Shown here: piece after piece, positions 1 through 56,213 of the stretch
Layout of the letters: each line of letters begins with the position of its first letter
How positions within the stretch are numbered: the stretch's first letter is position 1
NCBI GenBank assembly: GCA_965372715.1
Contig: CBDVDH010000018.1
Coordinates: 1-58,222, forward strand
Origin: an uncultured bacterium
GTDB taxonomy: Bacteria > B130-G9
Direction: 5' to 3'
Length of the DNA: 58,222 nucleotides
Position numbers and translations under genes: made by a program
Notes under the pieces: generated by a model
Databases searched by the model: none
The model's input: the letters and a program-made list of their open reading frames with translations, nothing else
What the model was told of the DNA's origin: nothing

Positions 1-24
1 CAGGCTGGAAAGCCCGCCCCACAC
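1..24 (-). repeat. REP-like palindrome (GTGGGG-type)
   Basis: Reverse complement GTGTGGGGCGGGCTTTCCAGCCTG matches 58085-58108 at 22/24 nt; imperfect internal palindrome. Confidence 0.65.
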
Positions 25-163: not shown

Positions 164-261
164 GGAGGCGGATAGGTCCTGGTGGGCCTTCTGGACTTCA
201 AATCCAGCAAGGGGCGGCAGAAACCGTCTCTGGTGGGTTCGATTCCCACACGCTTCCGCCA
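164..261 (+). tRNA. selC: tRNA-Sec (anticodon UCA)
   Basis: 6-bp D stem with 4-nt UGGU loop; CTGGA-CTTCAAA-TCCAG anticodon arm (TCA at 198-200); long variable arm; GTGGG-TTCGATT-CCCAC T arm; extended acceptor stem; G discriminator and encoded CCA. Confidence 0.97.
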
Positions 262-7066: not shown

Positions 7067-7139
7067 AGCGTATCTCGCGCGGAGCGGTTTTGATTTCAAG
7101 GCTCAGACTGAGCTGACGAGAGGCTCTGGGGAAAAATCC

Positions 7140-7168
7140 TTGACAGAGCATACTTTGGTGCATAGTAT
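7140..7168 (+). promoter_or_regulatory. sigma70-type promoter upstream of the giant-gene cluster
   Basis: TTGACA-17 nt-TAGTAT. Confidence 0.6.
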
Positions 7169-7225
7169 TCTGAGCGATAGAGATACTTTGGGGAACCTGC
7201 ATGTTTGGCTGGTTTTGCCCAACAG

Positions 7226-7270
7226 AAGCCGCTTAACAGCGGCTTATTGTGTGCATTCTTGTGTTTTTTG
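7226..7270 (+). terminator. Hairpin in the leader of the giant-gene cluster (possible terminator/attenuator)
   Basis: Perfect 8-bp stem AAGCCGCT-TAAC-AGCGGCTT followed by a T-rich tract. Confidence 0.45.
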
Positions 7271-7383
7271 TTGACATAGGGTCACAAAGGTTGCTGTCTG
7301 CAAGATCTGAGAATTCAACTTCCTTTTTGAATACAAGTAAGGCTTTGGCTTCGCCTCAGAAGCTCAAGATAGGAGAATATGGG

Positions 7384-10300
7384 ATGCGAGGACGTATTTT
7401 TGTTCTTGTCGCTGTGCTTTCTACGTTGTGCGTTTTGGCCGCGGAGTCGGCAGAATGGGTAAACTACTCTGAAACGTGTGATGTCCGCCACATTGCGGTC
7501 CAGGGCAACAAGGTGTGGGTCGGGACAACGAATGGCAATGGCGCCGCATCGGTTGATTCGAGCGGCAACGTGGCCTTCTATATTCCATCCGATGGTCTGG
7601 CCGCTGAAGACATAACTGCGCTGGCGTGCGACAGCCTTTCTGTCTGGTTTGGGACGGATACGGGCGTCACCATGTTCAATGGTGAGCGGTTTGAGACCTA
7701 CAACAAAGACAACAGCGGGCTTCTCACCGACAACATCCGGGCGATTGCCATCGATCCGCGCACGCTCGACAAATACATCGGCACGGAGATCGGCGTCTCC
7801 GTTTACGATGGGGTCAACTGGGAATCCTACACACCTTACAACAGCGATCTCGCCTCGCCCTACGTTTCTTCGGTCTTCGTTGATGGCGACACCGACGAGC
7901 TCTTCGTCGGAACCGACCTCGGCGTCAGCGTTATGAACATAACCGACGAGACCTGGTATCAATACAGAATTGAGCATGGGCTGGTCGCCAACAGAGTATC
8001 CAGCATCACGAAGGATACTGAGGGCAATTACTGGTTTGGAACCTACCAGGGCGCAAGTCGCTTCGACGGCGCCGATTGGCATTCCTACACCGCGACGAAT
8101 GGGCGCCTGAGCTCCGACTACGTTACCGACATCGTAGCTTCTCCGGCCGGATACGTGTGGGTCTCGACGGACAGGGGCCTGAATCGAATACGTGGCTCTG
8201 AGACCGTGGTGTTTGACGTAGCGTCCTATGGCGCCGACGGCTTAATCACCGATGTGAGTTACGCTCTCGGTTGCGACGGTTCTGGCAATCTCTGGATCGG
8301 CACCGCTCGAGGTCTTTTGGTCTTCGACGGCGAGAAGTTTGAGACCTATCTTGGAGACGGGCTCCGGAGCAACTTCATAACAAGCATCGCGACGCAGGGC
8401 AGGTCGGCCTACTGGTTCGGTACCGAGAACTCTGGCGTCAATAGGCTCGACGCCACGGGAATGGACGGTTACTACAACCTCGTCTCCGATGCTATCTCTG
8501 ACATCACCTCTCACTTCGAGGCTGGCAGATGGTATGAGTGGTTTGGCGGCGAGGACGGATTAACCATCTTTGATGGCACAAACTGGTGGGACCCCGGCCT
8601 TGCCATGGCGGTTTACAGAATGGCCGTTGAGTTCGTTGACCCTGATCCGGAGGTTGTGGATGACGAATACTGGAACAAATGGATATGCACTCAAGGGCAG
8701 GGGGTATTCCTAACAGCGACGACCATGCCGGGACTACTTGGCAACTACACGGTCGGCAACAGCGGCCTCTCGTCGGACACGGTCAACGCGGTCGCGATAG
8801 ATGATGACCATGCGAAGTGGTTTGGGACCTTAATGGGCGTCAGCATTCTCAGCCCTGATGATACTTGGTCGGGCATAACGATGCTGGACGGGCTGCCCAG
8901 TAACAACGTCTCCGCGATAGATTTCGCGGACGACGGCGTCTGGTTCGGGACTGATATGGGCGTCGCGGTCCGGAGGAGCGGCTTATGGACGACGTATCAG
9001 CACATCGGCGCGGATGAGCCGATGATCCAAGACAATTTTGCTGCGATGGTCGCTGAGGATGTGGCCGGAACCTGCGTTCGCTGGTTTGGCGGCCCAGGCG
9101 GTCTGTTGGCCTACGACGGCGCCGATTGGTCGATATACAAGGAATCCAACTCTGCTCTTCTCTCCAACGACGTTAGAGACGTCGCCATAGACTCTGCCGG
9201 AACCAAGTGGGTCTGCACGGCCGGCGGCATCGCAAGCATCGACTCAAGCAGCAATTTCTGGGTGACCCAGTCAACCATCGTCGGGTTGTTGTCTGACGAC
9301 GTTCGGGCTGTTCTTATTGGCCCGGGCGACAACAAGTGGTTCGCGACGGGCGGCGGCGTCTCGATGTTCGATGGCACGAGCTGGACGAACTTCAACGTCG
9401 ATGCCGGCCTCTGCTCGAACGACGTCCGCTGCGCCGCTATCGACAGAGTGGGCCGTATCTGGGCCGGGACCGCCTACGGAATCTGCGTCATCGATGGCGG
9501 AGCTGTAACGCTCAGCTATAACACCGGCAATTCGGACATCATAAGCGACGACGTCAGGGCGATCGTTATCGACCGGAATGGCATCAAGTGGCTCGCGACC
9601 GATGCCGGCGTCTGCAAGTTCGATGGTCATTCGTGGCGGACCTACAATTCTGCCTCGACTCCTTCGGGGCTGCCCTCGGACGACGTTCTTGACCTTTACA
9701 TTGATACTGATTTCAATCTCTGGGCGTGCACCACGCTTGGGGTCGCTAAGTATGACTATGCCGAATGGCGTGTTTTTGGGCTGGACTTCGGGCCGCTCGG
9801 CTATCAGATCAGCTTTGTCGGCGAGGATTGCCTCGAGGATGTCTTCTGGTTCGGCACGCAATACGGCCTCGTCAAGTTTGAATCGGGTAATTGGCATCTT
9901 TATTCCGGTGTTGGCCTTGGTTCCAATACCGTGCACGACCTGAAGGTCGATTCGGCCGGGAAGGTCTGGGTCGCCACCAATTGGGGTGTGTCGGTGTTTG
10001 ACGATGGCCTTTGGATGACTTATAACCGCGCAACTGGCGGTCCTGCGCACGACGTCGTCAACCGCGTAACGGTCGATTCGGACGACAACAAATGGTTTGC
10101 TACAGCAGGTGGCGGCGCTAGCCTCTATCTCGAGAATCACGATCCTGGCCTCTCGGACCCCGAATTGACGCCCAAATCCGGTCTTCCGGCGCTTCCGAAG
10201 CTCGAGGGCTCCGGCACCGAGTTCGATTACTCGGTCTATTACTTCGATCCGGACGTTGATTTCGCTCCCCTGGGATACTCCACAGAAGCCTATGTACATA

Positions 10301-12945
10301 TAGATGGCATTCCTTATGACATGTCCCTTGCGTCCGGCGCCGGCTATAACGGACGGTATTCCTTCTCGATCGTGGACCTTCCTGAAGGACGGCACACGTA
10401 TTACTTCTACTTCGTGAAGGAGTCGGGCAACATTGTGAAGCTTCCCGAATCGGGTGTTTTCTCGGGGCCCGTCGTCGATGGCTCGCCGCCGGCGTCGGCT
10501 GCCTACGCGGATGAATCGATGCTACCTTACACGAGGTACACCCCGCTTTTGATTCACTACTCCGCCGAGGATATAGAAAGCGGCATCTCCTCTGTGGCGC
10601 TTTACGTGAGGCAGACTGGCGAGGATTGGTCAAATACTGGCCTGACATCAACCAAGCCCTATGGTGTCTTCAACTATTCGACCTATTCTTCTGCAACGTA
10701 TGAATTCTGCTCGATCGCAACGAATCACTCGGGCCTTGTGGAGCAGCTTCCGGACGAGGCGGACTGCACTGTTGTCTATGACCGACTGGCGCCGAGCTCC
10801 TCGATAACCGCATCCTCGGGCAGAGCGTATAGCATGCCGGTGATGAGGCTGCCGTATGGCGCAAACGATGCCGAGAGCGGCGTTGACTATGTCGAGCTTT
10901 GGCACATGCACGAGGACGACCTCGACTTCGGGCGGTTCCCCGTAGCGACGCTCCAAGGCGAAAGTGGGCTGTTTATATACACTGCTGAAAAGGAAGGGTG
11001 GCATCTGTTTTATACGATAGCGGTTGACAAGGCTGGGAATCGCGAGGCCACGCCTCCGTCCTATTACCACTTCCGGATTTCCTACGACGGCACGCCGCCC
11101 GAATCGAGCTGCTCGACGATCGAGTTTGTGCGCACTTACTTCGATGTCAACTTCACCGCTAATGATGCGCAAAGCCGCGTGAGGAGCGTTGATCTGTATT
11201 ACAGATTCGACAGCGGCGCGCTTGTCCATTACGATACGGTCTATTACGGGAATGAGGGCGCCTTCCATTTCATTGCCCCGCAGGACGGGGTTTATGAGTT
11301 CTACACGCAAGCGATCGACTGGGCCGGCAACTACGAAGAGCTGCCGGCGGTTGCGGATGCGAGGTGCACTTCTGACATCACGCCTCCAACAGCGACCGCG
11401 ACCCTCCCTGAAGCGACGAATCAGCGAACTGTCAGGGTCCCATACAGTGCGTCCGATGAGACCTCTGGTGTCGCGGAAGTAAAGCTTTGGCTCAAATACA
11501 AGACTAGCGAATGGCTTGAAACCCCACTTTCATCCGAATACCGTGAGGGTGAGTTCCGGTTCCCATTCCTCCAGGGCGAGGGGCAATACCGCATCGCGAT
11601 GGTGGCGGAGGACCGCGCAGGTAACCTCACGCCGCTTACAGAGGATTCGGGTAGTGTGGTCCATTATGAGACTGTTTCTCCCCAATCCTATTCTTGGTGC
11701 GAATCCACTGGGGAGTCCGCGCCATTCATGGTTGAGTTCTCATCGACCGACGAGGGAAGCGGGCTTGATACCGTTCTTCTCTACTATCGCTACGAGGGCC
11801 GGCTGGATTGGACACTGGCTGATGGTGTTTACTTAGGAACCCCTATGGGCGGTTCGTTCTTGTTCTTCCCGGTGGAGGGAGGCGGATACTATGAGTTCTA
11901 CACGCTTGCCGTTGACAAGGCGGGCAATATGGAGCTCCCGCCGGCGCATGCGGACTGTTCCGCGGTCATTGACCTTGCGCCTCCTACGTCAACTGCCGCT
12001 GCGCCTGTCTCTGTTATGCTGGAGCCCTTCTACGTTGATTTCCAGGCGGAGGATGACGCGTCCGGCGTGATGTGTGTTGAGTTGTGGTATGCCTATCAGG
12101 ACGGGGGCTACGCCAGATTCGATACGGTCTGGGGCAGCGAGGCGGGCAGCTTCGAGTTCATGCCGGAAGAGGGAGCGGGCCTTTATTCGTTCTACTCTGT
12201 GGCAACCGACAGAGTGGGCAGGAAAGAGGCGGTTCCAGCGGCGGCGGATGCTGTTACGGATTACAATCCGGCTGGCCCCGCTTTGTCGCTCTCTGAGGAC
12301 GAGCACGATTTCGGCATGGTGCTGGTCAATGAGAGAGGCACCTGGACTGTGCGCGTCCTGAACACGGGCGACGCGCTCGTTACGGTCGAGAGTGTTGCCA
12401 CATCGACTGCGAGGTTTGAGGCCGATTTCAGGGCGCCGACCTCGATAGAGCCTGGGGGATACATTGACGTCGCGATTACATTTGCGCCGAACATGCCTGC
12501 GTTTTTCGAGGACAGCGTGAGGGTCGCAAGCGACGATCCAAATGCATCGGAGCTTTTTGCGCGCATTACAGGTCAGGGCGTGAACGAGCTGCCGCCGACA
12601 ATCAGGCTGACGAGCACTGCATCGAACGTAACCCAAGATGACCGTCTGATAGTTTCTGCACGGTTGTCGAATCCGGGCGCCGACATAACAGTTGATGTGT
12701 ATGTCGCGACTAAGCTGCCCGGTTCGGACACGCTCTACTTCTACCCAAGTTGGGCCTCGTCGCCGCGGGCGACCACTCTAACCCTGACGGAGGGGTCCGA
12801 GTTTGGCCCCGCTCCACTTCTCGACATCTCTGTTGGCGAGGGCATCGAGAAGGGCGAGTACGTAGTGTTTGGTGCTGTGGTCGCTGTTGGCACTCAATTC
12901 GAGATTCTTTCAGATATCTCCACTTTGAACATAATCGTTGAGTAG
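7384..12945 (+). CDS. Giant secreted repeat protein 1 (~1853 aa): propeller repeats, 6 Ig-like repeats, 1 ASH-like domain, shared C-terminal domain
   Basis: ATG 7384 with AGGAG RBS; signal peptide MRGRIFVLVAVLSTLCVLAAESA; many GL.SN.V..I..D..G..WFGT..GV propeller blades; repeated SGV..V.L.Y...YEF.T.A.D.AGN.E units. Confidence 0.88.
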   Translation: MRGRIFVLVAVLSTLCVLAAESAEWVNYSETCDVRHIAVQGNKVWVGTTNGNGAASVDSSGNVAFYIPSDGLAAEDITALACDSLSVWFGTDTGVTMFNGERFETYNKDNSGLLTDNIRAIAIDPRTLDKYIGTEIGVSVYDGVNWESYTPYNSDLASPYVSSVFVDGDTDELFVGTDLGVSVMNITDETWYQYRIEHGLVANRVSSITKDTEGNYWFGTYQGASRFDGADWHSYTATNGRLSSDYVTDIVASPAGYVWVSTDRGLNRIRGSETVVFDVASYGADGLITDVSYALGCDGSGNLWIGTARGLLVFDGEKFETYLGDGLRSNFITSIATQGRSAYWFGTENSGVNRLDATGMDGYYNLVSDAISDITSHFEAGRWYEWFGGEDGLTIFDGTNWWDPGLAMAVYRMAVEFVDPDPEVVDDEYWNKWICTQGQGVFLTATTMPGLLGNYTVGNSGLSSDTVNAVAIDDDHAKWFGTLMGVSILSPDDTWSGITMLDGLPSNNVSAIDFADDGVWFGTDMGVAVRRSGLWTTYQHIGADEPMIQDNFAAMVAEDVAGTCVRWFGGPGGLLAYDGADWSIYKESNSALLSNDVRDVAIDSAGTKWVCTAGGIASIDSSSNFWVTQSTIVGLLSDDVRAVLIGPGDNKWFATGGGVSMFDGTSWTNFNVDAGLCSNDVRCAAIDRVGRIWAGTAYGICVIDGGAVTLSYNTGNSDIISDDVRAIVIDRNGIKWLATDAGVCKFDGHSWRTYNSASTPSGLPSDDVLDLYIDTDFNLWACTTLGVAKYDYAEWRVFGLDFGPLGYQISFVGEDCLEDVFWFGTQYGLVKFESGNWHLYSGVGLGSNTVHDLKVDSAGKVWVATNWGVSVFDDGLWMTYNRATGGPAHDVVNRVTVDSDDNKWFATAGGGASLYLENHDPGLSDPELTPKSGLPALPKLEGSGTEFDYSVYYFDPDVDFAPLGYSTEAYVHIDGIPYDMSLASGAGYNGRYSFSIVDLPEGRHTYYFYFVKESGNIVKLPESGVFSGPVVDGSPPASAAYADESMLPYTRYTPLLIHYSAEDIESGISSVALYVRQTGEDWSNTGLTSTKPYGVFNYSTYSSATYEFCSIATNHSGLVEQLPDEADCTVVYDRLAPSSSITASSGRAYSMPVMRLPYGANDAESGVDYVELWHMHEDDLDFGRFPVATLQGESGLFIYTAEKEGWHLFYTIAVDKAGNREATPPSYYHFRISYDGTPPESSCSTIEFVRTYFDVNFTANDAQSRVRSVDLYYRFDSGALVHYDTVYYGNEGAFHFIAPQDGVYEFYTQAIDWAGNYEELPAVADARCTSDITPPTATATLPEATNQRTVRVPYSASDETSGVAEVKLWLKYKTSEWLETPLSSEYREGEFRFPFLQGEGQYRIAMVAEDRAGNLTPLTEDSGSVVHYETVSPQSYSWCESTGESAPFMVEFSSTDEGSGLDTVLLYYRYEGRLDWTLADGVYLGTPMGGSFLFFPVEGGGYYEFYTLAVDKAGNMELPPAHADCSAVIDLAPPTSTAAAPVSVMLEPFYVDFQAEDDASGVMCVELWYAYQDGGYARFDTVWGSEAGSFEFMPEEGAGLYSFYSVATDRVGRKEAVPAAADAVTDYNPAGPALSLSEDEHDFGMVLVNERGTWTVRVLNTGDALVTVESVATSTARFEADFRAPTSIEPGGYIDVAITFAPNMPAFFEDSVRVASDDPNASELFARITGQGVNELPPTIRLTSTASNVTQDDRLIVSARLSNPGADITVDVYVATKLPGSDTLYFYPSWASSPRATTLTLTEGSEFGPAPLLDISVGEGIEKGEYVVFGAVVAVGTQFEILSDISTLNIIVE

Positions 12946-13000
12946 AACGACAATTCGATAGCAATTATGTCTTAACCAAATCAGCGTTGGAGGATTTGTA

Positions 13001-16000
13001 ATGCGAGATAGGCTAGTTGTATTGCTCATGCTGCTGTTTTGCCTCGGGGGTTCGGCGGCCCTGGGCCAGGAATGGTATGTCCGCGTCAACAGCGATGACA
13101 TCAACGCCGTCTCCGGCGAGAGCGACTCCCTTTGGGCTGTGACCAACGGCGGGGGGACTCTCCTTTGGGACATGGACTCCATGGAGCTTGACAAGTTTGT
13201 CACATCTCAGCCCGATCTTTATTCGGATGAGGAAGATATTGGCGCCACTGTGCGCGTCTGGATCAGAGATGACCTCCTGACCAACTCGTTCACATCGGTC
13301 GCCGTTGGGCCTTCAAACACTGTGTGGCTGGGTTGCAGCGAAGGCATCAACGTAGCTGACATTTCATCGGGCAACGCGTGGGAGTTCACCTTCACAACAT
13401 ACACGGTCGCCAACTCGCCGCTTCCCTCCAACCTGATTACTGTGGTCGAGGCGCGTCCTGGCACAGAGGAGGTCTGGATCGGGACACAGGACGCTGGGCT
13501 CGCAATTTACGACGTAGCGGCGGGCACTTGGGACCTTTACGATGTGTCCGCCGGGCTCGCATCGAACAGGATAAACTGCATCTACTTTGACGAGCACGAG
13601 CGGGCATGGATCGGAACCGACTCCGGGGTAACGCAGATCAATATGAACTTCGACCCGTGGGCGTATTTGACGTACACAACGACCGACGGCCTGCCGTCCG
13701 ATTTCGTGACGGGCGTGGTCGAGGTCCCGTGTTGCTGGGTGTGGTTTGCGACCAACAACGGCGCGGCCCGTGTTGACCTGAACGACAACTGGGATACCTA
13801 CGGCACGTGGACCGACGGCAACTTCGTCTCGAACGACCTGCGCGGGATCGCCCCGGTCGATAGCGAGCTCTGGATGTGGACCGAGCTCGGGATTATTGTT
13901 CACGATCTTGGCACCGAGGCCTGGTCCTGCTTCACGACTGACAACACCGGCGGCGACCTTTGCTCCGATGACGTCCGGGATGTCTTCGATACCGGCAACT
14001 ATCTCATCGCCGGAACTCAGGGCGGCCTGTGCGAATACGACGGCGATTGGGATTGTTTCTGGGAGGAACACCTCGCCTCAAACGACCTGCGTGCAATCGC
14101 CTGCCAGGACGGCCAGGTGTGGTTCGGAACGTACGGCGACGGGGCGAATCTCCTCTCAGACTGGGATGCCAATAATGACGAGCCTGGGACGTGGGAGACG
14201 TTTTCTTATGCCCCAAGCGACGCGATCGCATCCAATTATATAAATGATATAGCGCTAGACAACCGGCTCGACGAGAACGGTGTCTGGTTCGCAACCAACC
14301 TGGGGGTGAGCTACTTCGCCTATCCGTCGTTGTGGACCACGTTCGACATCAGTAACACGTCCGGCGGGCTGCCCTCGGACCGCGTGATGGCCGTTGCGCT
14401 CGACCCCAGGGGTTATGATGGCGGTGTGGCAAGGACCTGGTTCGGAACCGACAACGGTCTGGCGTGCTACACGGCGGGCGCAACGACCCATTGGGACACA
14501 TTTACAACGGCGAATAGCGGCCTTCCCTCCAATTACGTAACATGTCTCGCGGGCGAGGTCCGAGGCGACGACTACTACCTCTGGATTGGGACCAACTGGG
14601 GCGTTGCGGTTCTTGACGTCGTGAACGACTCCTGGACGGTCTATGACAAGAGCAACAGCGACATCCTTTCTGAGAACGTCCGCTGCCTTCTGGTCGATAG
14701 CGACGGGTCGATCTGGATAGGAACCACCAACGGCATCAGTATCCTCGATCTGCCCAACACGTGGACATCGATCAGGACGAGCACCCCGGGCTCGGGCCTC
14801 GGCAGCAACGCCATCAACGCGATGATCCAGGGCTCCGGCAATCTATACTGGGTTGCTACAAGCCGGGGACTCACCAAGTTCGACAAATCGACCATGACCG
14901 GCAGCCGATACTTGCCGACCAACAGCGGGCTGATCAACGGCAATGTATATGACGTCTGCTATCAGCCGTGCGTCGGCGTTTGGGCGGCAACCAGAGGAGG
15001 CGCCTCGGCGCTGAGGCAGGGGATGCCGATTCTTTCCGACGAGTCGGTTGAGCCGCCGGTGGGCGGCCCGCTTGATGACTATACGTTCAGCGTTCATTTT
15101 GAGGATTTTGACGGATTTGCGCCGTCGTCGGCGACCTTGACCGTTGGCGCGACGGCATACACGATGACACTGGCGTCCGGCACGGCGGACAATGGCTATT
15201 ATGCTACCACTGTGAGCCTTGCGCCCGGGCACTGGACATTCTTCTTTGAGTTTGTGGACAGCGACGGCTGTCAGGTTCGCCATCCCACGGGCAGCGATGT
15301 GTTCGATGGGCCTGACATTTACGATGCGTTCGAGCCTGATGACCGTTGCTTCGATGCGCGGCTTATATGGGCGGACGGGACCGCCAGCGCCTGGCACAAC
15401 CTCATCCCGCTTGGCACGGACGAAGACTGGTTCTACTTCAGGGCCGAGGCATACATCGAATATGCCGTTACCGTGTCAGCTGCATCTGGCGCCTCCGCGG
15501 ACGTGGAGATTTATCAGGGCGATTGCGCTACTCTGGCGGGGACCGGGGACTCATCGGCGCCATTTGATTTCGTGGCCGATGCTGGCGGCTATTATTTCGT
15601 CAGGATAATCGACCAGGGCTCGTCAGCTGCGAGCGCAGGCGCATACACGCTTGCGGTTTCGGGCAACCAATGGCCGATGATGGGGCATTTCTTCACGAGA
15701 GCCGCGACGATTTCGGCCATCGCGCCCCACGCCTATTGCGACGTTCTGACATATTCGACTGGACCAACAATCGCGTCGAGCCCGGCCGTTGATCCCGCCG
15801 GCAACCTCTACTTTGGCGCGTCGTATGGACGGCTCGTATCGGTTGATCCCTTGCTGGAAGAGCGATGGGTGTTTGAGTCCGGCGACTCTGACCCGGTAAT
15901 GGTCTCGCCGGCGCTTTCGCCGGACGGTTCTGCGGTCTATTTCGGCACTCAGGATGGCTACTTCTACGCTGTGAACACAACGACGGGCATCATGGATTGG

Positions 16001-37840: not shown

Positions 37841-37994
37841 GTAGGGGTGCTGCTTGCTGCACCCTAAGGCTGACGTAGGGGCGGTGCTTGCCCCGCCCTT
37901 CATATGTTCCGGTCACATCAGAGAAGGGCACGGCAAGCGGTGCCCCTACAATGGCCGTTCGTGGCGCAACGGGTGCGACAAGCAGCGCCCCTAC
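37841..37994. repeat. GTAG-family REP cluster left of RAYT (4 REPs)
   Basis: GTAGGGGTGCTGCTTGCTGCACCC (37841), GTAGGGGCGGTGCTTGCCCCGCCC (37875), and inverted copies ending CCCCTAC at 37925-37949 and 37971-37994. Confidence 0.9.
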
Positions 37995-38016
37995 AATCAA
38001 TGGATGAGGAGGTTCC

Positions 38017-38613
38017 ATGCCTGGCCTCCGGCGCTCTATCAGACTACGCGGATATGACTATTCGCGCGGTGGGGTGTATTTTGTGACGATCTGCATCCAC
38101 GACCGGCAATGTCTGCTGGAGAACCTCGAGGTTAGGCGGATGGTCCAATCTATTTGGGTTGCTCTGCCTCGGCGCATCCCGCGCGTCAAGACAGACGCAT
38201 TCGTCATTATGCCGAATCACGTGCATGGGATATTGTTTCTGGCACCCAGATTTGTGGCGGGGCGTCAAACGATTGATCATGTGGCAACGGGTGATGCTGG
38301 CGCGGAGGGCACGGCAAGCGGTGCCCCTACGGCCCCGCCCAAGATGGAAGAGGGTGCAGCAAGCAGCACCCCTACAACGTTGCCGGTTGTTGTTCGCGCC
38401 TTCAAATCCATTGGTGCCGTTCAAATCAACCGTGCGTTGGGCCGACGCGGCCGCCTCTGGCAGCGCAACTACTACGAGCGCATCATTAGGAACGACGACG
38501 AATTGCGGCGCATTCGCGAATACATAGCGAGTAATCCACGACTGTGGGACATGGACCGGGAGAATCCCGACCGAATCGGTGAGAACGAGATATACGACTG
38601 GTTGTATTCGTGA
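38017..38613 (+). mobile_element. REP-associated tyrosine transposase (RAYT/TnpA-REP, HUH Y1 family)
   Basis: RRSIRLRGYDYS..GVYFVTIC, HUH motif MPNHVHGI, FKS, LWQRNYYERIIR...YI..NP; AGGAGG RBS; flanked by GTAG REPs. Confidence 0.92.
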
Positions 38614-38623
38614 AGAGGCGGCT

Positions 38624-38741
38624 TTAGGGGCGGTGCTTGCCCCGCCCTTGATGGTTCGGTCACATCAGAGAAGGGCGGGGCAAGCACCGCCCCTACAGGC
38701 CTCGCCGAAAAGCAAATGGGCACGGCAAGCGGCACCCCTAC
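38624..38741. repeat. GTAG-family REP cluster right of RAYT (3 REPs)
   Basis: TTAGGGGCGGTGCTTGCCCCGCCC at 38624 with its inverted partner at 38672-38696; third copy at 38718-38741. Confidence 0.9.
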
Positions 38742-38785: not shown

Positions 38786-39685
38786 TCACCCTCTCGGGTG
38801 GTATTTCTCGTGCAGGGCCCTGAGGTGTTCCTTGGCGACGTGGGTGTATATCTGCGTTGTTGAGAGGTCTGAATGGCCTAGCATCATCTTGATGGAGAGG
38901 AGGTCCGCGTCGTTCTCCAGAAGATGCGTCGCGAAAGAATGCCGAAGAATGTGGGGATAGATTGCTTTTGTGAGGCCGCATTCCGCCGCGTAGCGCTTGA
39001 TCATCTGCCAGACGAACTGTCTCGTCAGCCTTCTGCCCCTTGTCTGCGAGACGTAAAGGTGGGGCGACGTTCTGTCCTTCAGAAGGAGCGGTCGCCCTCG
39101 TCGCATGTACTCACGAGTCCACTTGAGCGCCTCGGTCCCGATCGGTATCAGCCTCTGCTTTGAGCCCTTTCCGGTGCAGCGGAGAAATCGCTCAGCCAGG
39201 TTGAGGCTCGTTGTCTCCAGCCCACAGAGCTCCGAGACGCGCATCCCCGTCGCATACATCATCTCGAGCATCGCCCTATCGCGGAGGCCGCGCGGCTCAG
39301 AAGTATCCGGGGCGTTCAGAAGCGTCTCGACCTCGTCCGAGGTGAGAAACGACGGCAGCCGCTGCCACTGTCTCGGCGATTCAACATTGGTGGTAGGGCA
39401 TTCTTGCAGGGTCCCCTTCAGGACGAGGTATTTGAAGAAATGCCTGAGGCAGGAGAGGGCATGACGGGAGGATGTGGGAGAAAGCCCTCTTTCCATGAGA
39501 TGCGCAAGGAACGCCTCTATGTGAGGCGCCTCGACCTCGTGAATTCGGACATCAACGTCGTCGAGATAGCATTTGAATGCGGCGAGGTCATTTCGATAGC
39601 TTGTCGCGGTGTTGATGGATAGGCCTCTTTCGGCGAGCAGATATGTGACAAATGAGCCTATTAGGGCTTCAGCGTCAGGCTTCAT
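38786..39685 (-). CDS. xerD: Site-specific tyrosine recombinase XerD
   Basis: ERGLS.NT..SY, RDRAMLEMMYATGMRVSEL, GKGSKQR, PHILRHSFATHLL, MLGHSDLSTTQIYTHV, terminal YHPRG. Confidence 0.92.
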   Translation of the reverse strand: MKPDAEALIGSFVTYLLAERGLSINTATSYRNDLAAFKCYLDDVDVRIHEVEAPHIEAFLAHLMERGLSPTSSRHALSCLRHFFKYLVLKGTLQECPTTNVESPRQWQRLPSFLTSDEVETLLNAPDTSEPRGLRDRAMLEMMYATGMRVSELCGLETTSLNLAERFLRCTGKGSKQRLIPIGTEALKWTREYMRRGRPLLLKDRTSPHLYVSQTRGRRLTRQFVWQMIKRYAAECGLTKAIYPHILRHSFATHLLENDADLLSIKMMLGHSDLSTTQIYTHVAKEHLRALHEKYHPRG

Positions 39686-41735: not shown

Positions 41736-41811
41736 GTAGGGGCGGCTCACGAGCCGCCCTGGATGTTGGTTCGGTCAAATAAGACAAGGGCGGCTCGTGA
41801 GCCGCCCCTAC
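41736..41811. repeat. REPIN (inverted REP doublet)
   Basis: GTAGGGGCGGCTCACGAGCCGCCCT, 26-nt spacer, then its exact inverse AGGGCGGCTCGTGAGCCGCCCCTAC. Confidence 0.9.
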
Positions 41812-41838: not shown

Positions 41839-42585
41839 TCACGCCTTATGCACGGCGTCCAGGTAGAGCCGCTCTAGGGACGTTATCCTCTCCGCGGAGG
41901 GTTTCTCGGACCCTTCTGACAGCGAACTCTCACCCACAACGCGGCCGGCATTGATTATCACTACCCGATCGCAGGTCTGGGCTACGTCGGCAAGGATGTG
42001 CGACGACACGATCAACGTCTTTGTGGCCCCAAGCGTCGAGACTAGCTCGCGAGTCTGAACGATCTGGTCCGGGTCGAGGCCGGCGGTCGGCTCGTCAAGT
42101 ATCAGCACCGACGGGTTGTGCACCAGCGCCTGGGCCAGGTTCAGCCGCTGCCCGTATCCTTTGGATAGCTTCCTTGCGAGCACGTGCCGAACGTCGCCCA
42201 GGCCCGCCGCGGTGATCGTCGTTCCCACACTCTTCTCAATCCCTCGGGCTGGGACGTCGCGGAGGCGCGCCCAGAACTTCAGATACCCAGTTACGGTCAG
42301 CTCCCGATACAGCGGCGGCCTTTCTGGCATGTAACCGATCTTCCGAATCGCGTTCTTACGCGCAGCGGCCATGTCAACGCCATCGATTGTAACCCGCCCA
42401 GAATCTTGGGCCAAGACCCCGGCGATTATCCGGATAATCGTCGTCTTGCCCGCGGCGTTGGGGCCAAGAAGGCCAACGGTTTCTGACCTCCTGACATCAA
42501 ACGTAACGTCCGACAGCACCTTTCGGTCGCCATACCACTTCGTAACGCCAGTTACCTCAACTGCCATTGACGAGTCATCTTTCAT
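41839..42585 (-). CDS. ABC transporter ATP-binding protein (GldA-like/ABC-2 type)
   Basis: Walker A GPNAAGKTT, signature LSKGYGQR, LILDEPTAGLDP, SSHIL; ATG 42585 overlaps the cas6 stop (ATGA). Confidence 0.9.
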   Translation of the reverse strand: MKDDSSMAVEVTGVTKWYGDRKVLSDVTFDVRRSETVGLLGPNAAGKTTIIRIIAGVLAQDSGRVTIDGVDMAAARKNAIRKIGYMPERPPLYRELTVTGYLKFWARLRDVPARGIEKSVGTTITAAGLGDVRHVLARKLSKGYGQRLNLAQALVHNPSVLILDEPTAGLDPDQIVQTRELVSTLGATKTLIVSSHILADVAQTCDRVVIINAGRVVGESSLSEGSEKPSAERITSLERLYLDAVHKA

Positions 42586-43346
42586 TTTGCCAACGCCTCG
42601 ACCATTCCGAATCCGATTGAGTTTTTCTCGCCAAATCCGCACTCGTATCCGACTCGGATCAGCTCCTCGCTTCCGTCAGCCGTGAACGGGCTGAACACGC
42701 CCCGAACCTTGATGCCTTTGAAATCAACGAGCTTGGTGATAGTCCTTTTCTGCGCGGTGTAGTTGGCATCGAAGTCCAACACAAAGCGGTCATCCGTCGC
42801 GCACCTGCCGAAGATCACTTGATACTTCCTTGTGAGATTCGTCCGGACCGCCTTGACGAAGTCCTCGCCCGGCTCGAGGTATCTTGTCGGGTTCCGCTCC
42901 GAGTTACAGTCCCAGATTGACGCCGTAATTGGGCATAGGCACACGAATCGCGCCGGGGCTTTGAGAGCGGGATCCGGCACGTGTTCAATCTTGTGAGCTG
43001 CGGCGCGCACGCCAGCGATTGTCAATTGAGGGTCTTTTTCGAGCCCTGCGAGGAGGTGGCCGATGAACTCCCCTCTTGCCGAACTCAGACACCAGCTGAA
43101 GCTCCTGGAATCCAGATACAGCCAATCCCCATCGACGCGCCTTTTCTTGACTTGGAGCTGTGAGAAACAGAACAGCTTGTACACGCGCTTTTCGAGGCGA
43201 TAGCCCTCGTTGTGCAGGAAATCCGCATAAGCCTGTGATGACAGCGACAGCCAGTGATAGATGGCTGAAACAAGCCAGGTGTTATAGTTGATTGGGACCC
43301 TCAAACCGGGACTGCCATTGAGGGTGAAAACGAGCCTAACTCTCAC
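42582..43346 (-). CDS. cas6: CRISPR-associated endoribonuclease Cas6 (orphan in this window)
   Basis: MRVRLVF...PINY...IY...FLHNEGY...YKLFCFSQL, NL.RKY, and C-terminal Gly-rich loop GYECGFGEKNSIGFGMV. Confidence 0.9.
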   Translation of the reverse strand: MRVRLVFTLNGSPGLRVPINYNTWLVSAIYHWLSLSSQAYADFLHNEGYRLEKRVYKLFCFSQLQVKKRRVDGDWLYLDSRSFSWCLSSARGEFIGHLLAGLEKDPQLTIAGVRAAAHKIEHVPDPALKAPARFVCLCPITASIWDCNSERNPTRYLEPGEDFVKAVRTNLTRKYQVIFGRCATDDRFVLDFDANYTAQKRTITKLVDFKGIKVRGVFSPFTADGSEELIRVGYECGFGEKNSIGFGMVEALAK

Positions 43347-43349
43347 GAC

Positions 43350-44495
43350 CTATTCCTCGGGCTGCTCGCTGTCTTTTCTCTCGTCCCTTATCTCGGCCTC
43401 TTTCCTGCCTTTCTTGACAAGACGCTTCACGAACCAGCTCTTCTTGGCGCCTCGTAAGAGGTCGGTAAGGTCATCGTAGATCGATGGGTCGTTTATCAAC
43501 TTGCCGAGCGTGCCCTGGCCCTCGTCGATCTTCCGAGCCACGCTATTCAGCTTGACAGCGGCTTCGTTGAGGCTGTTCATTGTGGAGGCGATGTCGTCGA
43601 GCATCTCGCCACTGCCCTCCTTGCTCAGCAATTTGGGCAGAACGCCCTCACCGGATTGCAGGCTAGCCAGAAGCGATTTGAGGAGGCGAGCGGATTCGCC
43701 AATGTCAACAGCCAGCCGCTCGTAAAGAGCGTCGTCCTTCACGAGCCTTCCGAGGGTTCCCCTGCCCTCCTGAATCCCCGCCATGATGCCGTCCAGCGAT
43801 GAGATGACGCCAGCCAGATTGTCTCTTGTCTGCTTGTCGTAGAGCAGCATCCCCAGCGCTCCCCGTCCCGCCCGGACCTCCTCAAGGACCAGGTCAAGCG
43901 ACTTGGTTGCGCCCATGAAGTTGTCAATGGCCCCTTTGAAATCGATTTCTTGGTTCACGAATGCCCCTGCGAGGCCCTTGCCCTCGTCGATCTTGTTGAG
44001 TATTCGCACAAGTGATCCGGATGCCTCGTCGAGCCGCGCGAGAACGCTCTGGCCACGTTTCAGCAGCGCGTTGTAGTCTATCGGGTCGATGGAATCCAAG
44101 ATGCTTCCGTCTTCAACGACGGGCTTGTCGAAACTGCCCATCGTTATCTCGATGTATTTGTCACCAAGCACGCCCATCGTCTCAATGCGAGCCCTGGAAT
44201 CTGTGCGGATCTTGTCCTGGACGCTCGCCTCGATCGAGACGGTTACTCTTACGCGTTTACCCATCGGGTCAAGCAGCAGCTCGATGTCCTCGACGGTTCC
44301 GACATCAACACCCTCAAGCATGACCGGGGCGCCGGCCACGAGCCCGCTCACGCTGCCGAAATATGCCCACAGACGGTATTTGGGCTGTAGGAGGCGACTG
44401 CGGCCGCCTATCGAGAAGACCAAACCAGCGAAAAGGGCAACAGCGACAATGACGAAGAGGCCGACTCTTATTTCACGTGCGCCAACTGATTTCAT
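43350..44495 (-). CDS. MCE/MlaD-family protein with long helical extension
   Basis: EIRVGLFV TM helix, GLVAGAPVMLEGVDVGTV, IETMGVLGDKYIEI, repeated G.GTLGKLI.D helices. Confidence 0.88.
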   Translation of the reverse strand: MKSVGAREIRVGLFVIVAVALFAGLVFSIGGRSRLLQPKYRLWAYFGSVSGLVAGAPVMLEGVDVGTVEDIELLLDPMGKRVRVTVSIEASVQDKIRTDSRARIETMGVLGDKYIEITMGSFDKPVVEDGSILDSIDPIDYNALLKRGQSVLARLDEASGSLVRILNKIDEGKGLAGAFVNQEIDFKGAIDNFMGATKSLDLVLEEVRAGRGALGMLLYDKQTRDNLAGVISSLDGIMAGIQEGRGTLGRLVKDDALYERLAVDIGESARLLKSLLASLQSGEGVLPKLLSKEGSGEMLDDIASTMNSLNEAAVKLNSVARKIDEGQGTLGKLINDPSIYDDLTDLLRGAKKSWFVKRLVKKGRKEAEIRDERKDSEQPEE

Positions 44496-44615
44496 CTGAA
44501 AACTGACCCATAGTCGATAACTTAACTACCAGCAAACGATACGCCACCAGCAATATCGTAGTTGATCGTCGGCAGATCTTCAAAGCGAACATTTGAGGAG
44601 TTTCCGTTGAAGCGG

Positions 44616-44722
44616 AAATGGGGGAATCCGTCTTTTCAGCCGACGTAGCCATAGGTTACTATGGCGAAGTCTGCCGTTCACCGGAACGTGAACTTCGGCG
44701 GACGAGAAGGCGGAATCCATTT
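44616..44722 (+). other. Multi-stem palindromic element in the divergent intergenic region
   Basis: TCCGTCTTTTC/GAGAAGGCGGA closing helix, GCCATAG-GTTA-CTATGGC hairpin, GTCTGCCG/CGGCGGAC helix capped by GTTCAC-CGGAAC-GTGAAC. Confidence 0.5.
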
Positions 44723-53432: not shown

Positions 53433-54286
53433 CGATTGCCGCTAAGCCGCACGCCCACAACATCGTTCGTGTCTTGAATGAAACGTGCGAGTGGCTCCTG
53501 AGAAAGGGCCTCAATGTGCGAGTAGATGAGCAGGTCGCGCACATGGTCTCATCGGCCGTGGAGGGGATGCCCAGGGAGCAGGTCCTCAACGGCGCCGACA
53601 TGGTCATCGTGTTCGGCGGGGACGGTACCTTGATAAGCGTGGCCAGGATAGCCCCAGAGCTCTCGGTCCCGATTCTTGGGGTCAACGTCGGCGGTTTGGG
53701 CTTCTTGACCGAGCTTACGCTCGAGAAGCTGTTCAGTTCGCTCTCGGAGATACTCGACGGCAAGTTCGTGCTTGAGGAACGGATAGCCATTCGCGCACGG
53801 GTGTCGGGCGCAGAGCGAAAGCCGAAGACATTTTTCGCCGTCAATGATTTCGTGATCAACAAATCAGCAATAGCGAGGATGATCGACATCAGGACCTACG
53901 TTGACGACTCGTTCGTAGCCAAATACCGGGGTGATGGCCTCATAATCTCCACCCCGACGGGTTCCACAGCATATTCTCTCGCAGCGGGCGGGCCCATAAT
54001 TCAACCGACTACAAACGTCCTAGTCCTTTCACCTATATGTCCACACACGCTTACGAATCGGCCCATCGTTGTCCCGGACAGCGTAGTCATCAAGACTCAA
54101 CTGCTCAGCAAAGGCCAGGAGGTCACACTAACCATCGACGGCCAGGAAGCGGTCCCTCTGTTCGACGGCGATGAGATACTCGTCTTCAAGGCGATGGAGA
54201 AGCTCAGGCTGGTCCAGAGCCTCAAGAGCAATTACTACTCGATACTCCGCAAGAAGTTCTCGTGGGGAAAGAACCTTGGGCAGTAG
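53417..54286 (+). CDS. nadK: NAD kinase
   Basis: GGDGT, GVNVGGLGFL, AVND, DGLIISTPTGSTAYSLAAGGP, PICPHTL, DGQ. Confidence 0.97.
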   Translation: MFKTIAIAAKPHAHNIVRVLNETCEWLLRKGLNVRVDEQVAHMVSSAVEGMPREQVLNGADMVIVFGGDGTLISVARIAPELSVPILGVNVGGLGFLTELTLEKLFSSLSEILDGKFVLEERIAIRARVSGAERKPKTFFAVNDFVINKSAIARMIDIRTYVDDSFVAKYRGDGLIISTPTGSTAYSLAAGGPIIQPTTNVLVLSPICPHTLTNRPIVVPDSVVIKTQLLSKGQEVTLTIDGQEAVPLFDGDEILVFKAMEKLRLVQSLKSNYYSILRKKFSWGKNLGQ

Positions 54287-56213
54287 TAAGCGTTCTACGG
54301 CCGAGAAAGACGCGATCTCAATTATATACCCGACCGAGGGCGAGACAATAATCGGTCGGAACGTTGAACTGGTCGGCTGGGTGCGAGGAGCGCCCAGAGG
54401 GGCCGGCCAGGCTCGACTGGCTTTTGGAATCAATGGCCGGCTGCACTCATCATTGAGCGTTCTGCCGCAGGCGCGCTCGCCGTTCAAGCAGCAGCTCCCT
54501 CTTGAGGAAGGCAAGAACGAGATACTCCTTGAGCTTATGCTTGGCGTGAGACTGGTTGACCAGAAGAAGGTTACCGTAGATGCCGTGCCGGACCAAGAGC
54601 CCATCTCATACGAGTCGCTTTACAGGAACAGCTGGGCGCTCTTAATAGGCATAGACAACAGCCCCGCCGCTCAGCCCCTCAAATACGCCGTCAAGGATGC
54701 GAAGTCCCTGGAGCAATTCCTTAGGACCAAGACCTTCTTCGACGAAGACAGGACATTTACACTTCACAATCAACAGGCGACAAAGAAGCGCATCTTGGAG
54801 CTGATGAACGATTTCATGGGCGCGAATCCGGCTCTCACCTCAGATGACCGCGTGCTTATCTTCTTTGCGGGCCACGGCCAAAGACGGAGGGTGCAAAAGG
54901 GTAAGAGAAAGAGCGACTACCGAGGCTACCTGGTTCCCTATGACGGCAACCTTCAGAAAATCCACAGCACCTGCATATCGATGGAGGAGATTAAGGAGGC
55001 CGCAAGCGTAATATGTGCCAAACACACTCTGTTTATACTCGATTGCTGCTTCAGCGGTCTTGCGGGTTTGCGCCCGCGGGCGGCGATCGCGCCGAGGCCA
55101 AAGCTCAAGACCCTGAACGACCCTTGTGTGAGAATCATAGCCGCGGGCAAATCGGACGAGGAGGTATTTGAGGGCAAGGAGAGCTGGGGTGGCAACAGCC
55201 TGTTCAGCAGGTATTTGCTCAAAGGATTAGAAGGCTTCGCCGATCATGACAACGATGGCATCATAACTTCTGACGATCTGTTCTTCTTCGTTCGAGACCG
55301 TGTAGCTGAGGAATCCGGCAACCGCCAAACGCCTCAGGCGCGACATTTTGTGGAGTACGGCGAGGGCCAATTTGTGTTCTTCGTTCGAGACCATAAGCAG
55401 ACGAGCGAGAAAAAAAATGTGCCCACGGTTGAGCTAGCTGAAGAACACGCGGACGCGACGGACTCGCGCGAGCCAATCCAGACTTGCCCAGCAAGAGCAG
55501 CCATCGCTTCACTGGACACAATCACAATTCCCGGCGGTGAGTTCCGGATGGGCTCAACCGATGCCGCCGACGAATCGCCGATTCACGCGGTGAACCTGAC
55601 GGCCTTCGAGATTGACATCTCCCCTGTTACTAACAGGATGTATTGGGAGTTTTTGGAAGCTACAGGCTATGATGGTCGGGTCGAGGCCGACGACAATTAC
55701 CTGGCGGATTGGTCGTCCGGCGGCTATCCGCCCGGTCAGGAGGGTTATCCGGTTACCTGCATTTCGTGGTTCAATGCGGCGGCATATTGCCTTTGGCGGG
55801 GTTGCCAGCTCCCGACCGAGGCGCAGTGGGAGATGGCGTGCAGGGGCGGCCTCAGCGGCAAGAGATTCCCCTGGGGCGACGCGCTGCCCGATGAGCTCGT
55901 GAAAAGGTCTAAGTCAGGCCGACGCAAGACGCTCGTGGGTCAACTGCCTCCAAATGGCTTTGGGCTTCTCGACATCTACGGCAACGTCTCCCAATGGTGT
56001 CGCGACTTCTACGACAGGGACTACTACTCAACAGGCCCAAGTCTCAATCCCGGTGGGCCGCAAAGCGGCAAGCTGCGAGTTGTGCGAGGTGGGTCTTTTC
56101 TCGCCGGACCGGGGCTGCTCCGATGCGCCGCACGGTTTGCTGCGGACCCCAAGACGACGAGCCGAACCATCGGCTTCAGATGTGTCAAGTGCAAAGATGA
56201 CCGGGTTCAATAG
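54276..56213 (+). CDS. Caspase-like (peptidase C14) domain plus FGE/SUMF1-type domain protein with N-terminal Ig-like segment
   Basis: Probable TTG start 54276 overlapping the nadK end (ORF is open from 54171); WALLIGID, FFAGHG, ILDCCFSG, QTPQ; then IPGGEFRMGS, VTN, LPTEAQWE.ACRGG, PNGFGL.D..GNV..WC.D, RVVRGGS, IGFRC. Confidence 0.85.
   Translation: MGSSKRSTAEKDAISIIYPTEGETIIGRNVELVGWVRGAPRGAGQARLAFGINGRLHSSLSVLPQARSPFKQQLPLEEGKNEILLELMLGVRLVDQKKVTVDAVPDQEPISYESLYRNSWALLIGIDNSPAAQPLKYAVKDAKSLEQFLRTKTFFDEDRTFTLHNQQATKKRILELMNDFMGANPALTSDDRVLIFFAGHGQRRRVQKGKRKSDYRGYLVPYDGNLQKIHSTCISMEEIKEAASVICAKHTLFILDCCFSGLAGLRPRAAIAPRPKLKTLNDPCVRIIAAGKSDEEVFEGKESWGGNSLFSRYLLKGLEGFADHDNDGIITSDDLFFFVRDRVAEESGNRQTPQARHFVEYGEGQFVFFVRDHKQTSEKKNVPTVELAEEHADATDSREPIQTCPARAAIASLDTITIPGGEFRMGSTDAADESPIHAVNLTAFEIDISPVTNRMYWEFLEATGYDGRVEADDNYLADWSSGGYPPGQEGYPVTCISWFNAAAYCLWRGCQLPTEAQWEMACRGGLSGKRFPWGDALPDELVKRSKSGRRKTLVGQLPPNGFGLLDIYGNVSQWCRDFYDRDYYSTGPSLNPGGPQSGKLRVVRGGSFLAGPGLLRCAARFAADPKTTSRTIGFRCVKCKDDRVQ

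Follow-up and report, generated by a model that had tools for sequence, protein, structure and literature searches.

What does a Cas6 protein do when its gene lies between genes for an MCE-domain protein and an ABC transporter ATPase, with no CRISPR array nearby? The question is raised by a 58,222-nt stretch of DNA from an uncultured bacterium of the candidate phylum Coatesbacteria (GCA_965372715.1, contig CBDVDH010000018.1; hereafter the window, which is the entire contig C18), where cas6 is the middle gene of a compact three-gene unit (Table 1). The initial annotation described an orphan cas6 wedged into an envelope-transport operon and offered two explanations: a trans-acting processor for distant arrays or a domesticated RNase acting on cellular RNAs. 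The source metagenome-assembled genome (MAG), G000, consists of 112 contigs (3.56 Mb, 95.9% complete) and was compared with six other Coatesbacteria genomes, G001-G006; together these are all the genomes available for the phylum, seven species-level ones from one family and four genera, and all of them draft MAGs. Among the sequencing runs listed as containing this DNA, 19 are DNA runs and none is an RNA run; salt marsh, cold seep and sediment are the habitats concerned. The evidence points to the first kind of explanation: Cas6 probably acts in trans as the guide-RNA processor of a type III-D-like effector module that lacks a cas6 gene and is encoded on another contig (C1) of the same genome.

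Identity and conservation of the window Cas6

The middle gene encodes a genuine Cas6 by family, fold and conserved active-site residues. The protein scores 110.3 bits against the NCBIfam equivalog TIGR01877 (cut-off 58.65, E 1.6e-31), 85.3 bits against Pfam Cas_Cas6_C (PF01881; cut-off 23) and 47.5 bits against the Pfam Cas6_I-A N-terminal domain (PF21350; cut-off 27), and its top PADLOC model is Cas6b (181 bits). Its sequence also matches Protein Data Bank entries 5yi6 (E 1.9e-22) and, from Pyrococcus furiosus, 3pkm and 3i4h (E 1e-15). The AlphaFold2 model (pLDDT 88.3, pTM 0.86) contains two tandem ferredoxin-like (RRM) domains, and the first nine Foldseek ranks are all occupied by Cas6 or Cas6-related structures (5yi6, 3ufc, 3qjj, 3i4h and 3pkm; TM 0.77-0.90). 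On the sequence-matched Cas6 structures the model superposes with TM 0.79-0.86. Residues Y30, H45 and K57 align with a Tyr, a His and a Lys of P. furiosus Cas6 (3pkm/3i4h), of which we take Tyr31, His46 and Lys52 to be the catalytic triad; H45, the His of the FLHNEGY motif, aligns with the His in ...YLHE of the P. furiosus protein. In an alignment of 18 Cas6 sequences H45 and K57 are invariant, and Y30 is conserved in at least 90%. The C-terminal glycine-rich loop of Cas6 follows the motif GhGxxxxxGhG. Here it reads GFGEKNSIGFG (residues 237-247), with G237, G239, G245 and G247 invariant across the same 18 sequences. Profiles, fold and alignment thus bear out the initial call of an intact Cas6, which had been made from the His-containing FLHNEGY and the Gly-rich loop. 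The dN/dS values of cas6 (0.18-0.34, against 0.12-0.16 for neighbouring genes) indicate that it is under purifying selection, and Cas6 is apparently an active endoribonuclease, predicted from these residues to cleave RNA.

These data bear directly on the idea that cas6 has no function and is left over from a vanished CRISPR locus, hitch-hiking on the operon. Such a remnant would fit a source genome in which no array or adaptation genes were found, but the frame is intact in all seven genomes at 60-93% identity over four genera, the dN/dS values are low as given above, and neither the catalytic His and Lys nor the Gly-rich loop varies. We regard this explanation as very improbable.

The arrangement of the gene is stable as well. 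Orthologous cas6 is present with an intact frame in 7/7 Coatesbacteria genomes from the four genera (60-93% identity), and both the MCE-cas6-ABC order and the 3-4-nt junctions are identical in five of the six other genomes (G001-G005), in which the MCE orthologues upstream of cas6 share 59-95% identity. The sixth, G006, is 87% complete and offers only a 1.7-kb contig with the end of cas6 and the ATPase gene; an MCE query found no match in this assembly. Five close metagenome contigs, some of which are probably the same DNA as MAG contigs (locus L124 matches L017 in length and coordinates), carry cas6 and the ABC gene in every case and the MCE gene in four, the fifth contig beginning at cas6. 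The earlier suggestion that tight coupling reflects stable integration is supported by this recurrence in five of the six other genomes, with the sixth partial.

Direct reading of the junctions shows how close the coupling is. The MCE gene ends in ...GAGGAATAG (stop TAG), followed by GTC and then by the GTG of cas6, a gap of 3 nt, and the GAGGA Shine-Dalgarno sequence for cas6 sits inside the end of the MCE gene. In turn, cas6 ends in ...GCAAAATGA, where its TGA shares ATGA with the ATG of the ATPase gene. The junctions had been described in the same way before (cas6 starting 3 nt after the MCE stop; TGA overlapping ATG). Upstream of the MCE gene, the sole conserved blocks across six aligned regions are the invariant columns TTTGAA and TAnGAT, and the UshA-like gene downstream of the unit has its own conserved element of the TTGACA type. 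Because MCE and the downstream gene each have their own promoter-like blocks, MCE, cas6 and the ATPase gene look like one transcription unit, and we infer that they are co-transcribed.

Outside Coatesbacteria, cas6 keeps different company. Among 87 Cas6 homologues, the top 12 are of the Coatesbacteria type (54-100% identity) and the remainder share at most 45% identity with the window protein; the 12 form one clade in a quick IQ-TREE phylogeny (SH-aLRT 99). Across 80 genome loci with Cas6 homologues, MCE and ABC neighbours occur in the Coatesbacteria loci only (L016-L018, partly L074). Fourteen distant loci were sampled by running Pfam on 69 of their 122 neighbouring open reading frames (ORFs), and Cas3, Cas7, Cas10, Csm2 or RAMP genes adjoin cas6 in at least 11 of the 14. 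The presence of cas genes beside these distant relatives marks the Coatesbacteria cas6 as a displaced offshoot of ordinary type I/III-associated Cas6. A large clade of solo Cas6 proteins (75/80 loci have no array nearby) was considered and rejected, since at least 11 of the 14 sampled loci carry adjoining cas effector genes.

A type III-D-like module in the same genomes

On its own contig, cas6 is indeed alone. No CRISPR array was found in the 58-kb window with Tandem Repeats Finder, k-mer scans and Rfam, and no second cas gene is present among its 26 large ORFs, the set scanned for cas genes; to this extent the earlier statement that there is no array and no other cas gene in 58 kb holds for the contig. 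The window Cas6 therefore lies beside neither an array nor other cas genes, a criterion that is contextual and does not define the protein. The label of orphan applies to contig C18 but not to the genome, since a cas6-less type III-D-like module is present on C1. A RAMP search gives four matches on C1 of G000 and the same number per genome in G001-G006. The RAMP cluster, like Cas6, is found in 7/7. Four ORFs of the C1 module exceed the Pfam RAMPs cut-off; the top NCBIfam and PADLOC models for the module are Csx10/Cas5-IIID, Csx7/Csm3, TIGR03986, Csm2 and Csx19, and PADLOC Cas7_IIId is also matched. The gene order from lysS to the nitroreductase gene recurs in G000-G006 wherever contigs reach (L111-L119), at 41-98% identity, and the module loci of these genomes contain no cas6. 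The window gene is also the sole Cas6-family gene found in the G000 assembly (TIGR01877, PF01881). A CasE search of G000 gave none, a search that may be insensitive, its control having matched in only 1 of 14 control genomes. Together, a module without cas6 and a single Cas6-family gene lend support to the trans-acting option of the initial annotation.

The first gene of the module encodes a 494-aa protein with no sequence-family match in Pfam, NCBIfam or PADLOC and with 12 homologues, all in Coatesbacteria-type records. Its AlphaFold2 model (pLDDT 69, pTM 0.72) gives 56 Foldseek matches with E<=0.001 (best 3.5e-7), and all those listed contain Cas10, Csm1 or Cmr2, the type III-D complex 8s9u being represented by its chain C. 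The alignment of this protein shows CxxC...CxxC and no visible GGDD or HD motif. At the other end, a SagB-type nitroreductase gene always closes the module and overlaps the preceding gene in G002, G005 and G006, and a conserved divergent ORF of 86-97 aa and unknown family precedes the module. The nitroreductase and the small ORF may have an accessory or regulatory role in it.

For the favoured explanation, we propose that an ancestral type III-D locus became dispersed, that its cas6 landed between the MCE and ATPase genes and was fixed there as the middle gene, and that Cas6 would since have worked in trans, processing guide RNA for the module left without cas6. On this proposal, cas6 would be retained in its unusual place because the module needs Cas6 to make guides. 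Precedent is not lacking: most type III systems apparently rely on Cas6 provided in trans (PMC12669027), and stand-alone effector modules are described as common (PMC6452270).

Other CRISPR systems of Coatesbacteria are compatible with this assignment. G001 carries a complete type I-E system (C51, L120), from Cas3 through Cas6e, Cas1e and Cas2e, and its array of 10 repeats lies at the contig start. A contig end of G003 (C160, L121) likewise carries an array, whose repeat is type I-E-like. In G005 (C164 and C326; L206, L207) there is a type I-B-like cassette with a cas6 of its own, truncated by the end of the contig, and G005 and G006 (C440, L102) each have a contig with a Cas4-Cas1 fusion and Cas2 and with no array there. 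None of these additional systems (type I-E, I-B-like, Cas4-Cas1) was found in G000, where searches also gave no Cas3 above cut-off and no Cas10 palm-2 match. Since the type I systems of G001 and G005 bring their own processing enzyme, the conserved Cas6 would be dispensable to them, which leaves the type III-D-like module as its only client.

Several points weigh against this explanation. Nothing ties Cas6 to the module physically or by expression, and the functional link between the two is inferred. All seven genomes come from one family and inherit nearly everything together, so that co-occurrence is statistically uninformative. The NCBIfam type III-D matches are best matches that all fall below the equivalog cut-offs, which is why the locus is termed type III-D-like, and the fold matches of the 494-aa protein, whose model has a pLDDT of 69, show low TM values (0.30-0.40). 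For a defence system, it is unusual that a type III-D module should occupy a single, fixed chromosomal position throughout a phylum. In addition, k-mer scans found no CRISPR array in the 95.9% complete G000, no array adjoins the module on the G000-G006 contigs examined (in four of the genomes the module contig spans >20 kb), and searches for cas1, a gene found in 4/7 Coatesbacteria genomes, gave none in G000.

The missing array deserves a closer look. The scan of G000 covered exact k-mers of 12-20 nt with >=3 copies at a spacing of 45-110; its matches were coding repeats of beta-helix, HEAT or LRR type and a tRNA-like duplication. Two-copy repeats of >=20 nt outside long ORFs gave 10 candidates, and the four inspected were dispersed hairpins resembling repetitive extragenic palindromic (REP) elements. 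The type I-E repeats of G001 and G003 had no match in G000 when up to 6 mismatches were allowed. In G001-G006, selected contigs were scanned. Arrays end or escape these assemblies (G001, G003 and G005), and the absence of an array from G000 is for this reason weak evidence. The initial annotation had held that domestication would be refuted by a cas6-less type I-B or III locus with arrays and by loss of the gene in CRISPR-free relatives. A cas6-less type III-like locus exists, but no array was found in G000, and there are no CRISPR-free relatives among the seven, since all carry Cas6 and the module. The proposed refutation thus goes only halfway, and domestication of Cas6 is possible, though less probable than a trans-acting role.

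One form of domestication involves both parts. Cas6 and the module could be a domesticated pair that works independently of arrays, in which a fixed guide would be produced by Cas6 from a chromosomal RNA unrelated to CRISPR, and the complex with its putative degenerate Cas10 would regulate host genes at the RNA level rather than provide adaptive immunity. This is an unlikely explanation, though several points favour it: in 7/7 genomes and four genera, vertical inheritance has kept both Cas6 and the module at fixed loci, whereas type I-E and I-B-like systems and cas1 (4/7) are patchy; the module has no array next to it in any of the genomes, and G000 yielded none at all; the putative Cas10 homologue is short (494 aa) and without visible GGDD or HD motif; and Cas6 evolves more slowly than the module (60% versus 41-58% identity in G003). 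Against it, the search for a conserved structured RNA near the operon or the module yielded only promoter-like blocks and a small ORF in common, with no candidate guide locus upstream of either, and the two-copy repeat candidates proved to be dispersed REP-like hairpins. Arrays also break these assemblies (contig ends in G001 and G003, cas genes without an assembled array in G005), and seven related genomes are a small sample. We give the favoured explanation, in which Cas6 makes guides for the module from an unassembled CRISPR array or another RNA, the better prospects, and think it doubtful that the Coatesbacteria core genes form an array-independent RNA-guided machine composed of a housekeeping-operon Cas6 and a module with a fixed chromosomal guide.

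The three-gene unit and its contig

The description of the unit as an envelope-transport operon was overstated, because it has no permease and its ATPase is GldA/DrrA-like rather than MlaF-like. No permease is found among the window ORFs. The MCE protein scores 92 bits against the NCBIfam MlaD equivalog, under the cut-off of 135, and the top NCBIfam model for the ATPase is GldA, at 237.9 bits also under its cut-off (402.6). In outgroup loci, an MlaF-type ATPase gene directly precedes the MCE homologue in 24/24 cases, with a recognisable mlaE before that in 19/24. The window ATPase shares 24-32% identity with 23 of these 24 MCE-adjoining ATPases, the last (L229) giving a weak 44.7-bit match. 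In G000, three outgroup MlaF queries find their best matches on C54 and C19 rather than C18; C26 and C89 each carry an mlaE gene with unrelated neighbours, and C51 a second MCE gene. The Mla components found here, comprising two genes each of the mlaE, mlaF-type and MCE kinds, are thus scattered over different contigs and lie among unrelated genes. With no permease, a non-MlaF ATPase and mlaE and mlaF elsewhere, what surrounds cas6 is not a functioning Mla operon but a lineage-specific unit of three genes, in which the MCE and ATPase genes have no demonstrated partnership. Likeness to Mla (MlaFEDB) operons is confined to the MlaD/MCE domain with an N-terminal membrane anchor in the first gene. 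Unlike in the outgroup Mla-type loci, the MCE gene of the window leads the unit, no permease follows, and the ATPase is GldA/DrrA-like.

The nature of the unit matters for the second form of domestication, in which Cas6 is an RNase or RNA-binding protein that works with operon partners or cellular RNAs independently of the module, for instance by processing the transcript of its own operon or REP-containing RNAs. The 3-4-nt junctions recur in all genomes that have the junctions on a contig, the promoter-like element upstream of the MCE gene is conserved and the downstream gene has a separate one, and an inverted REP pair directly follows the ATPase stop, all of which would suit such a role. 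However, we know of no biology that links a cytoplasmic Cas6 with a periplasmic MCE protein, and the three genes are not a recognisable transporter (no permease, ATPase not of the MlaF type). Conservation of the hairpins near the operon does not extend past the genus, and this includes the region 44616-44722, put forward earlier as a candidate substrate. The cas6-less type III module in the same genome, moreover, offers a simpler client than the operon partners. We consider a role of this kind improbable.

The inverted REP pair possibly marks the end of the transcription unit. G000 has the pair and L123 a part of it; the G002-like, G003 and G005-like loci lack it. The REP family to which it belongs, GTAGGGGCGGCTCACGAGCCGCCC (24 nt), is represented by 71 genome copies with <=3 mismatches, spread over 37 contigs, and 388 occurrences of its 9-nt core were counted in the genome, compared with ~27 expected. 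The earlier claim that the window holds no transposon needs a reservation. A weak IS200-like/RAYT-type ORF at 38017-38613 (Y1_Tnp 22.9 bits, just below the cut-off of 23), associated with REP elements, and a tyrosine recombinase gene at 38786-39685 lie ~3-4 kb downstream of the three-gene unit. REP cores flank the RAYT-type ORF (37875-38688 in all).

Table 1. Positions of the features discussed; window coordinates unless a contig is named.
Feature	Position	Strand	Remarks
MCE/MlaD-family gene, first of the three-gene unit	43350..44495	-	381 aa; Pfam MlaD 79.6 bits (cut-off 25.1)
cas6, middle gene	42582..43346	-	254 aa, GTG start; putative catalytic Y30, H45, K57; Gly-rich loop 237-247
ABC transporter ATPase gene	41839..42585	-	248 aa from the ATG overlapping the cas6 stop; Pfam ABC_tran 97.7 bits
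Promoter-like TTGAAG-17 nt-TACGAT	44555..44583	-	~60 nt upstream of the MCE start; putative promoter
Inverted REP pair (REPIN-like) directly downstream of the ATPase stop	41736..41811		REP copies at 41736 and 41788
Type III-D-like effector module, without cas6	G000:C1:5776-13509		5776-14150 with the nitroreductase gene (locus L108)
Module gene 1			494-aa degenerate Cas10-like protein
Module gene 2			621-aa Cas7-Cas5 (Csx10) protein; PADLOC Cas5_IIId 1.1e-29
Module gene 3			Csm2-like (Cas11/Csm2-like) protein; PADLOC Csm2, weak, 3.2e-6
Module genes 4-5			two Csx7/Csm3-type Cas7 proteins; PADLOC Csm3 3e-32 and 5e-27
Module gene 6			Csx19-like protein; PADLOC Csx19, weak, 5.5e-5
Module gene 7			414-aa TIGR03986-type RAMP, Cas7 with insertion
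Module gene 8			small Csx21-like protein
Module gene 9			SagB-type nitroreductase

The remainder of the contig contains several unrelated features. The gene that follows the ATPase gene (40188-c.41597, -) encodes a UshA-like multihaem selenoprotein. Its truncated ORF scores 248.9 bits against NCBIfam UshA_like_PCGU, just below the cut-off of 275, and when the in-frame TGA at c.41442-41444 is read as selenocysteine (Sec), the frame extends upstream through an APCGU motif. A tRNA-Sec gene is present in the window at 164-257 (+) and was the sole Rfam match on the window and the type III-D-like locus. Half of contig C18 is occupied by four successive giant genes (7249-37811, +) for proteins of 1898, 2539, 2665 and 3015 aa with beta-propeller and Ig-like repeats, and a 680-aa protein with caspase (Peptidase_C14) and FGE-sulfatase domains is encoded at 54171-56213 (+).

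Significance and comparison with known systems

The Cas6 protein itself is ordinary, and the use of Cas6 in trans by type III systems is already known. The novelty lies in the setting, in that a candidate phylum has fixed both a cas6 gene translationally coupled within a non-cas operon and a type III-D-like module that lacks an array. Open-access literature (article text, supplements excluded) yielded nothing on Cas6 with MlaD/MCE or on the Coatesbacteria arrangement of cas6 and type III-D. In this case Cas6 would be lent not by another CRISPR locus but by a solitary cas6 gene that overlapping codons tie into a non-cas operon, and both this gene and its likely client module are vertically inherited in all seven genomes compared. 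If arrays exist, Coatesbacteria would present an extreme case of a dispersed yet stable class 1 system, and annotations of an 'orphan' cas6 or an 'array-less' type III locus would need whole-genome context. If there are none, a natural multi-subunit CRISPR effector and its processing nuclease would have been co-opted for a host function; were the guide also fixed, the whole phylum would have exapted a class 1 CRISPR effector along with its processing nuclease.

Three groups of known systems help to place these findings. The first is formed by the Cas6 proteins of P. furiosus and Methanocaldococcus (3pkm/3i4h, 5yi6; TIGR01877), which belong to the same family and share the fold, the Tyr, His and Lys residues and the Gly-rich loop with the window Cas6 at 24-29% identity. 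Unlike those of P. furiosus and Methanocaldococcus, the window gene sits between MCE and ABC ATPase genes, outside a CRISPR-cas locus, and the searches turned up no cognate repeat for its product.

The second group comprises the type III-D and III-Dv effector complexes, such as III-Dv of Synechocystis (8s9u; PMC11026444). The gene set of the Coatesbacteria module resembles theirs, with a putative Cas10 of ~500 aa, a Csx10-type Cas5, several Csx7/Csm3-type Cas7 proteins, Csx19 and a Cas7 with insertion. In contrast to these systems, the Coatesbacteria module has a Cas7 fused to Cas5 and Cas11 as a separate gene, always carries the SagB-type nitroreductase gene, and has neither an array nor cas6 in the locus.

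The third group consists of type III systems that use Cas6 in trans (PMC12669027). These too combine an effector module lacking cas6, an array and adaptation genes of its own with one Cas6 encoded at another genomic site. The Coatesbacteria case differs in that no array has been found and in that both parts are conserved across a small phylum. It differs also in the origin of the enzyme: as published, the trans-acting Cas6 comes from another CRISPR-cas locus (PMC12669027), whereas the Coatesbacteria Cas6 comes from a non-cas operon.

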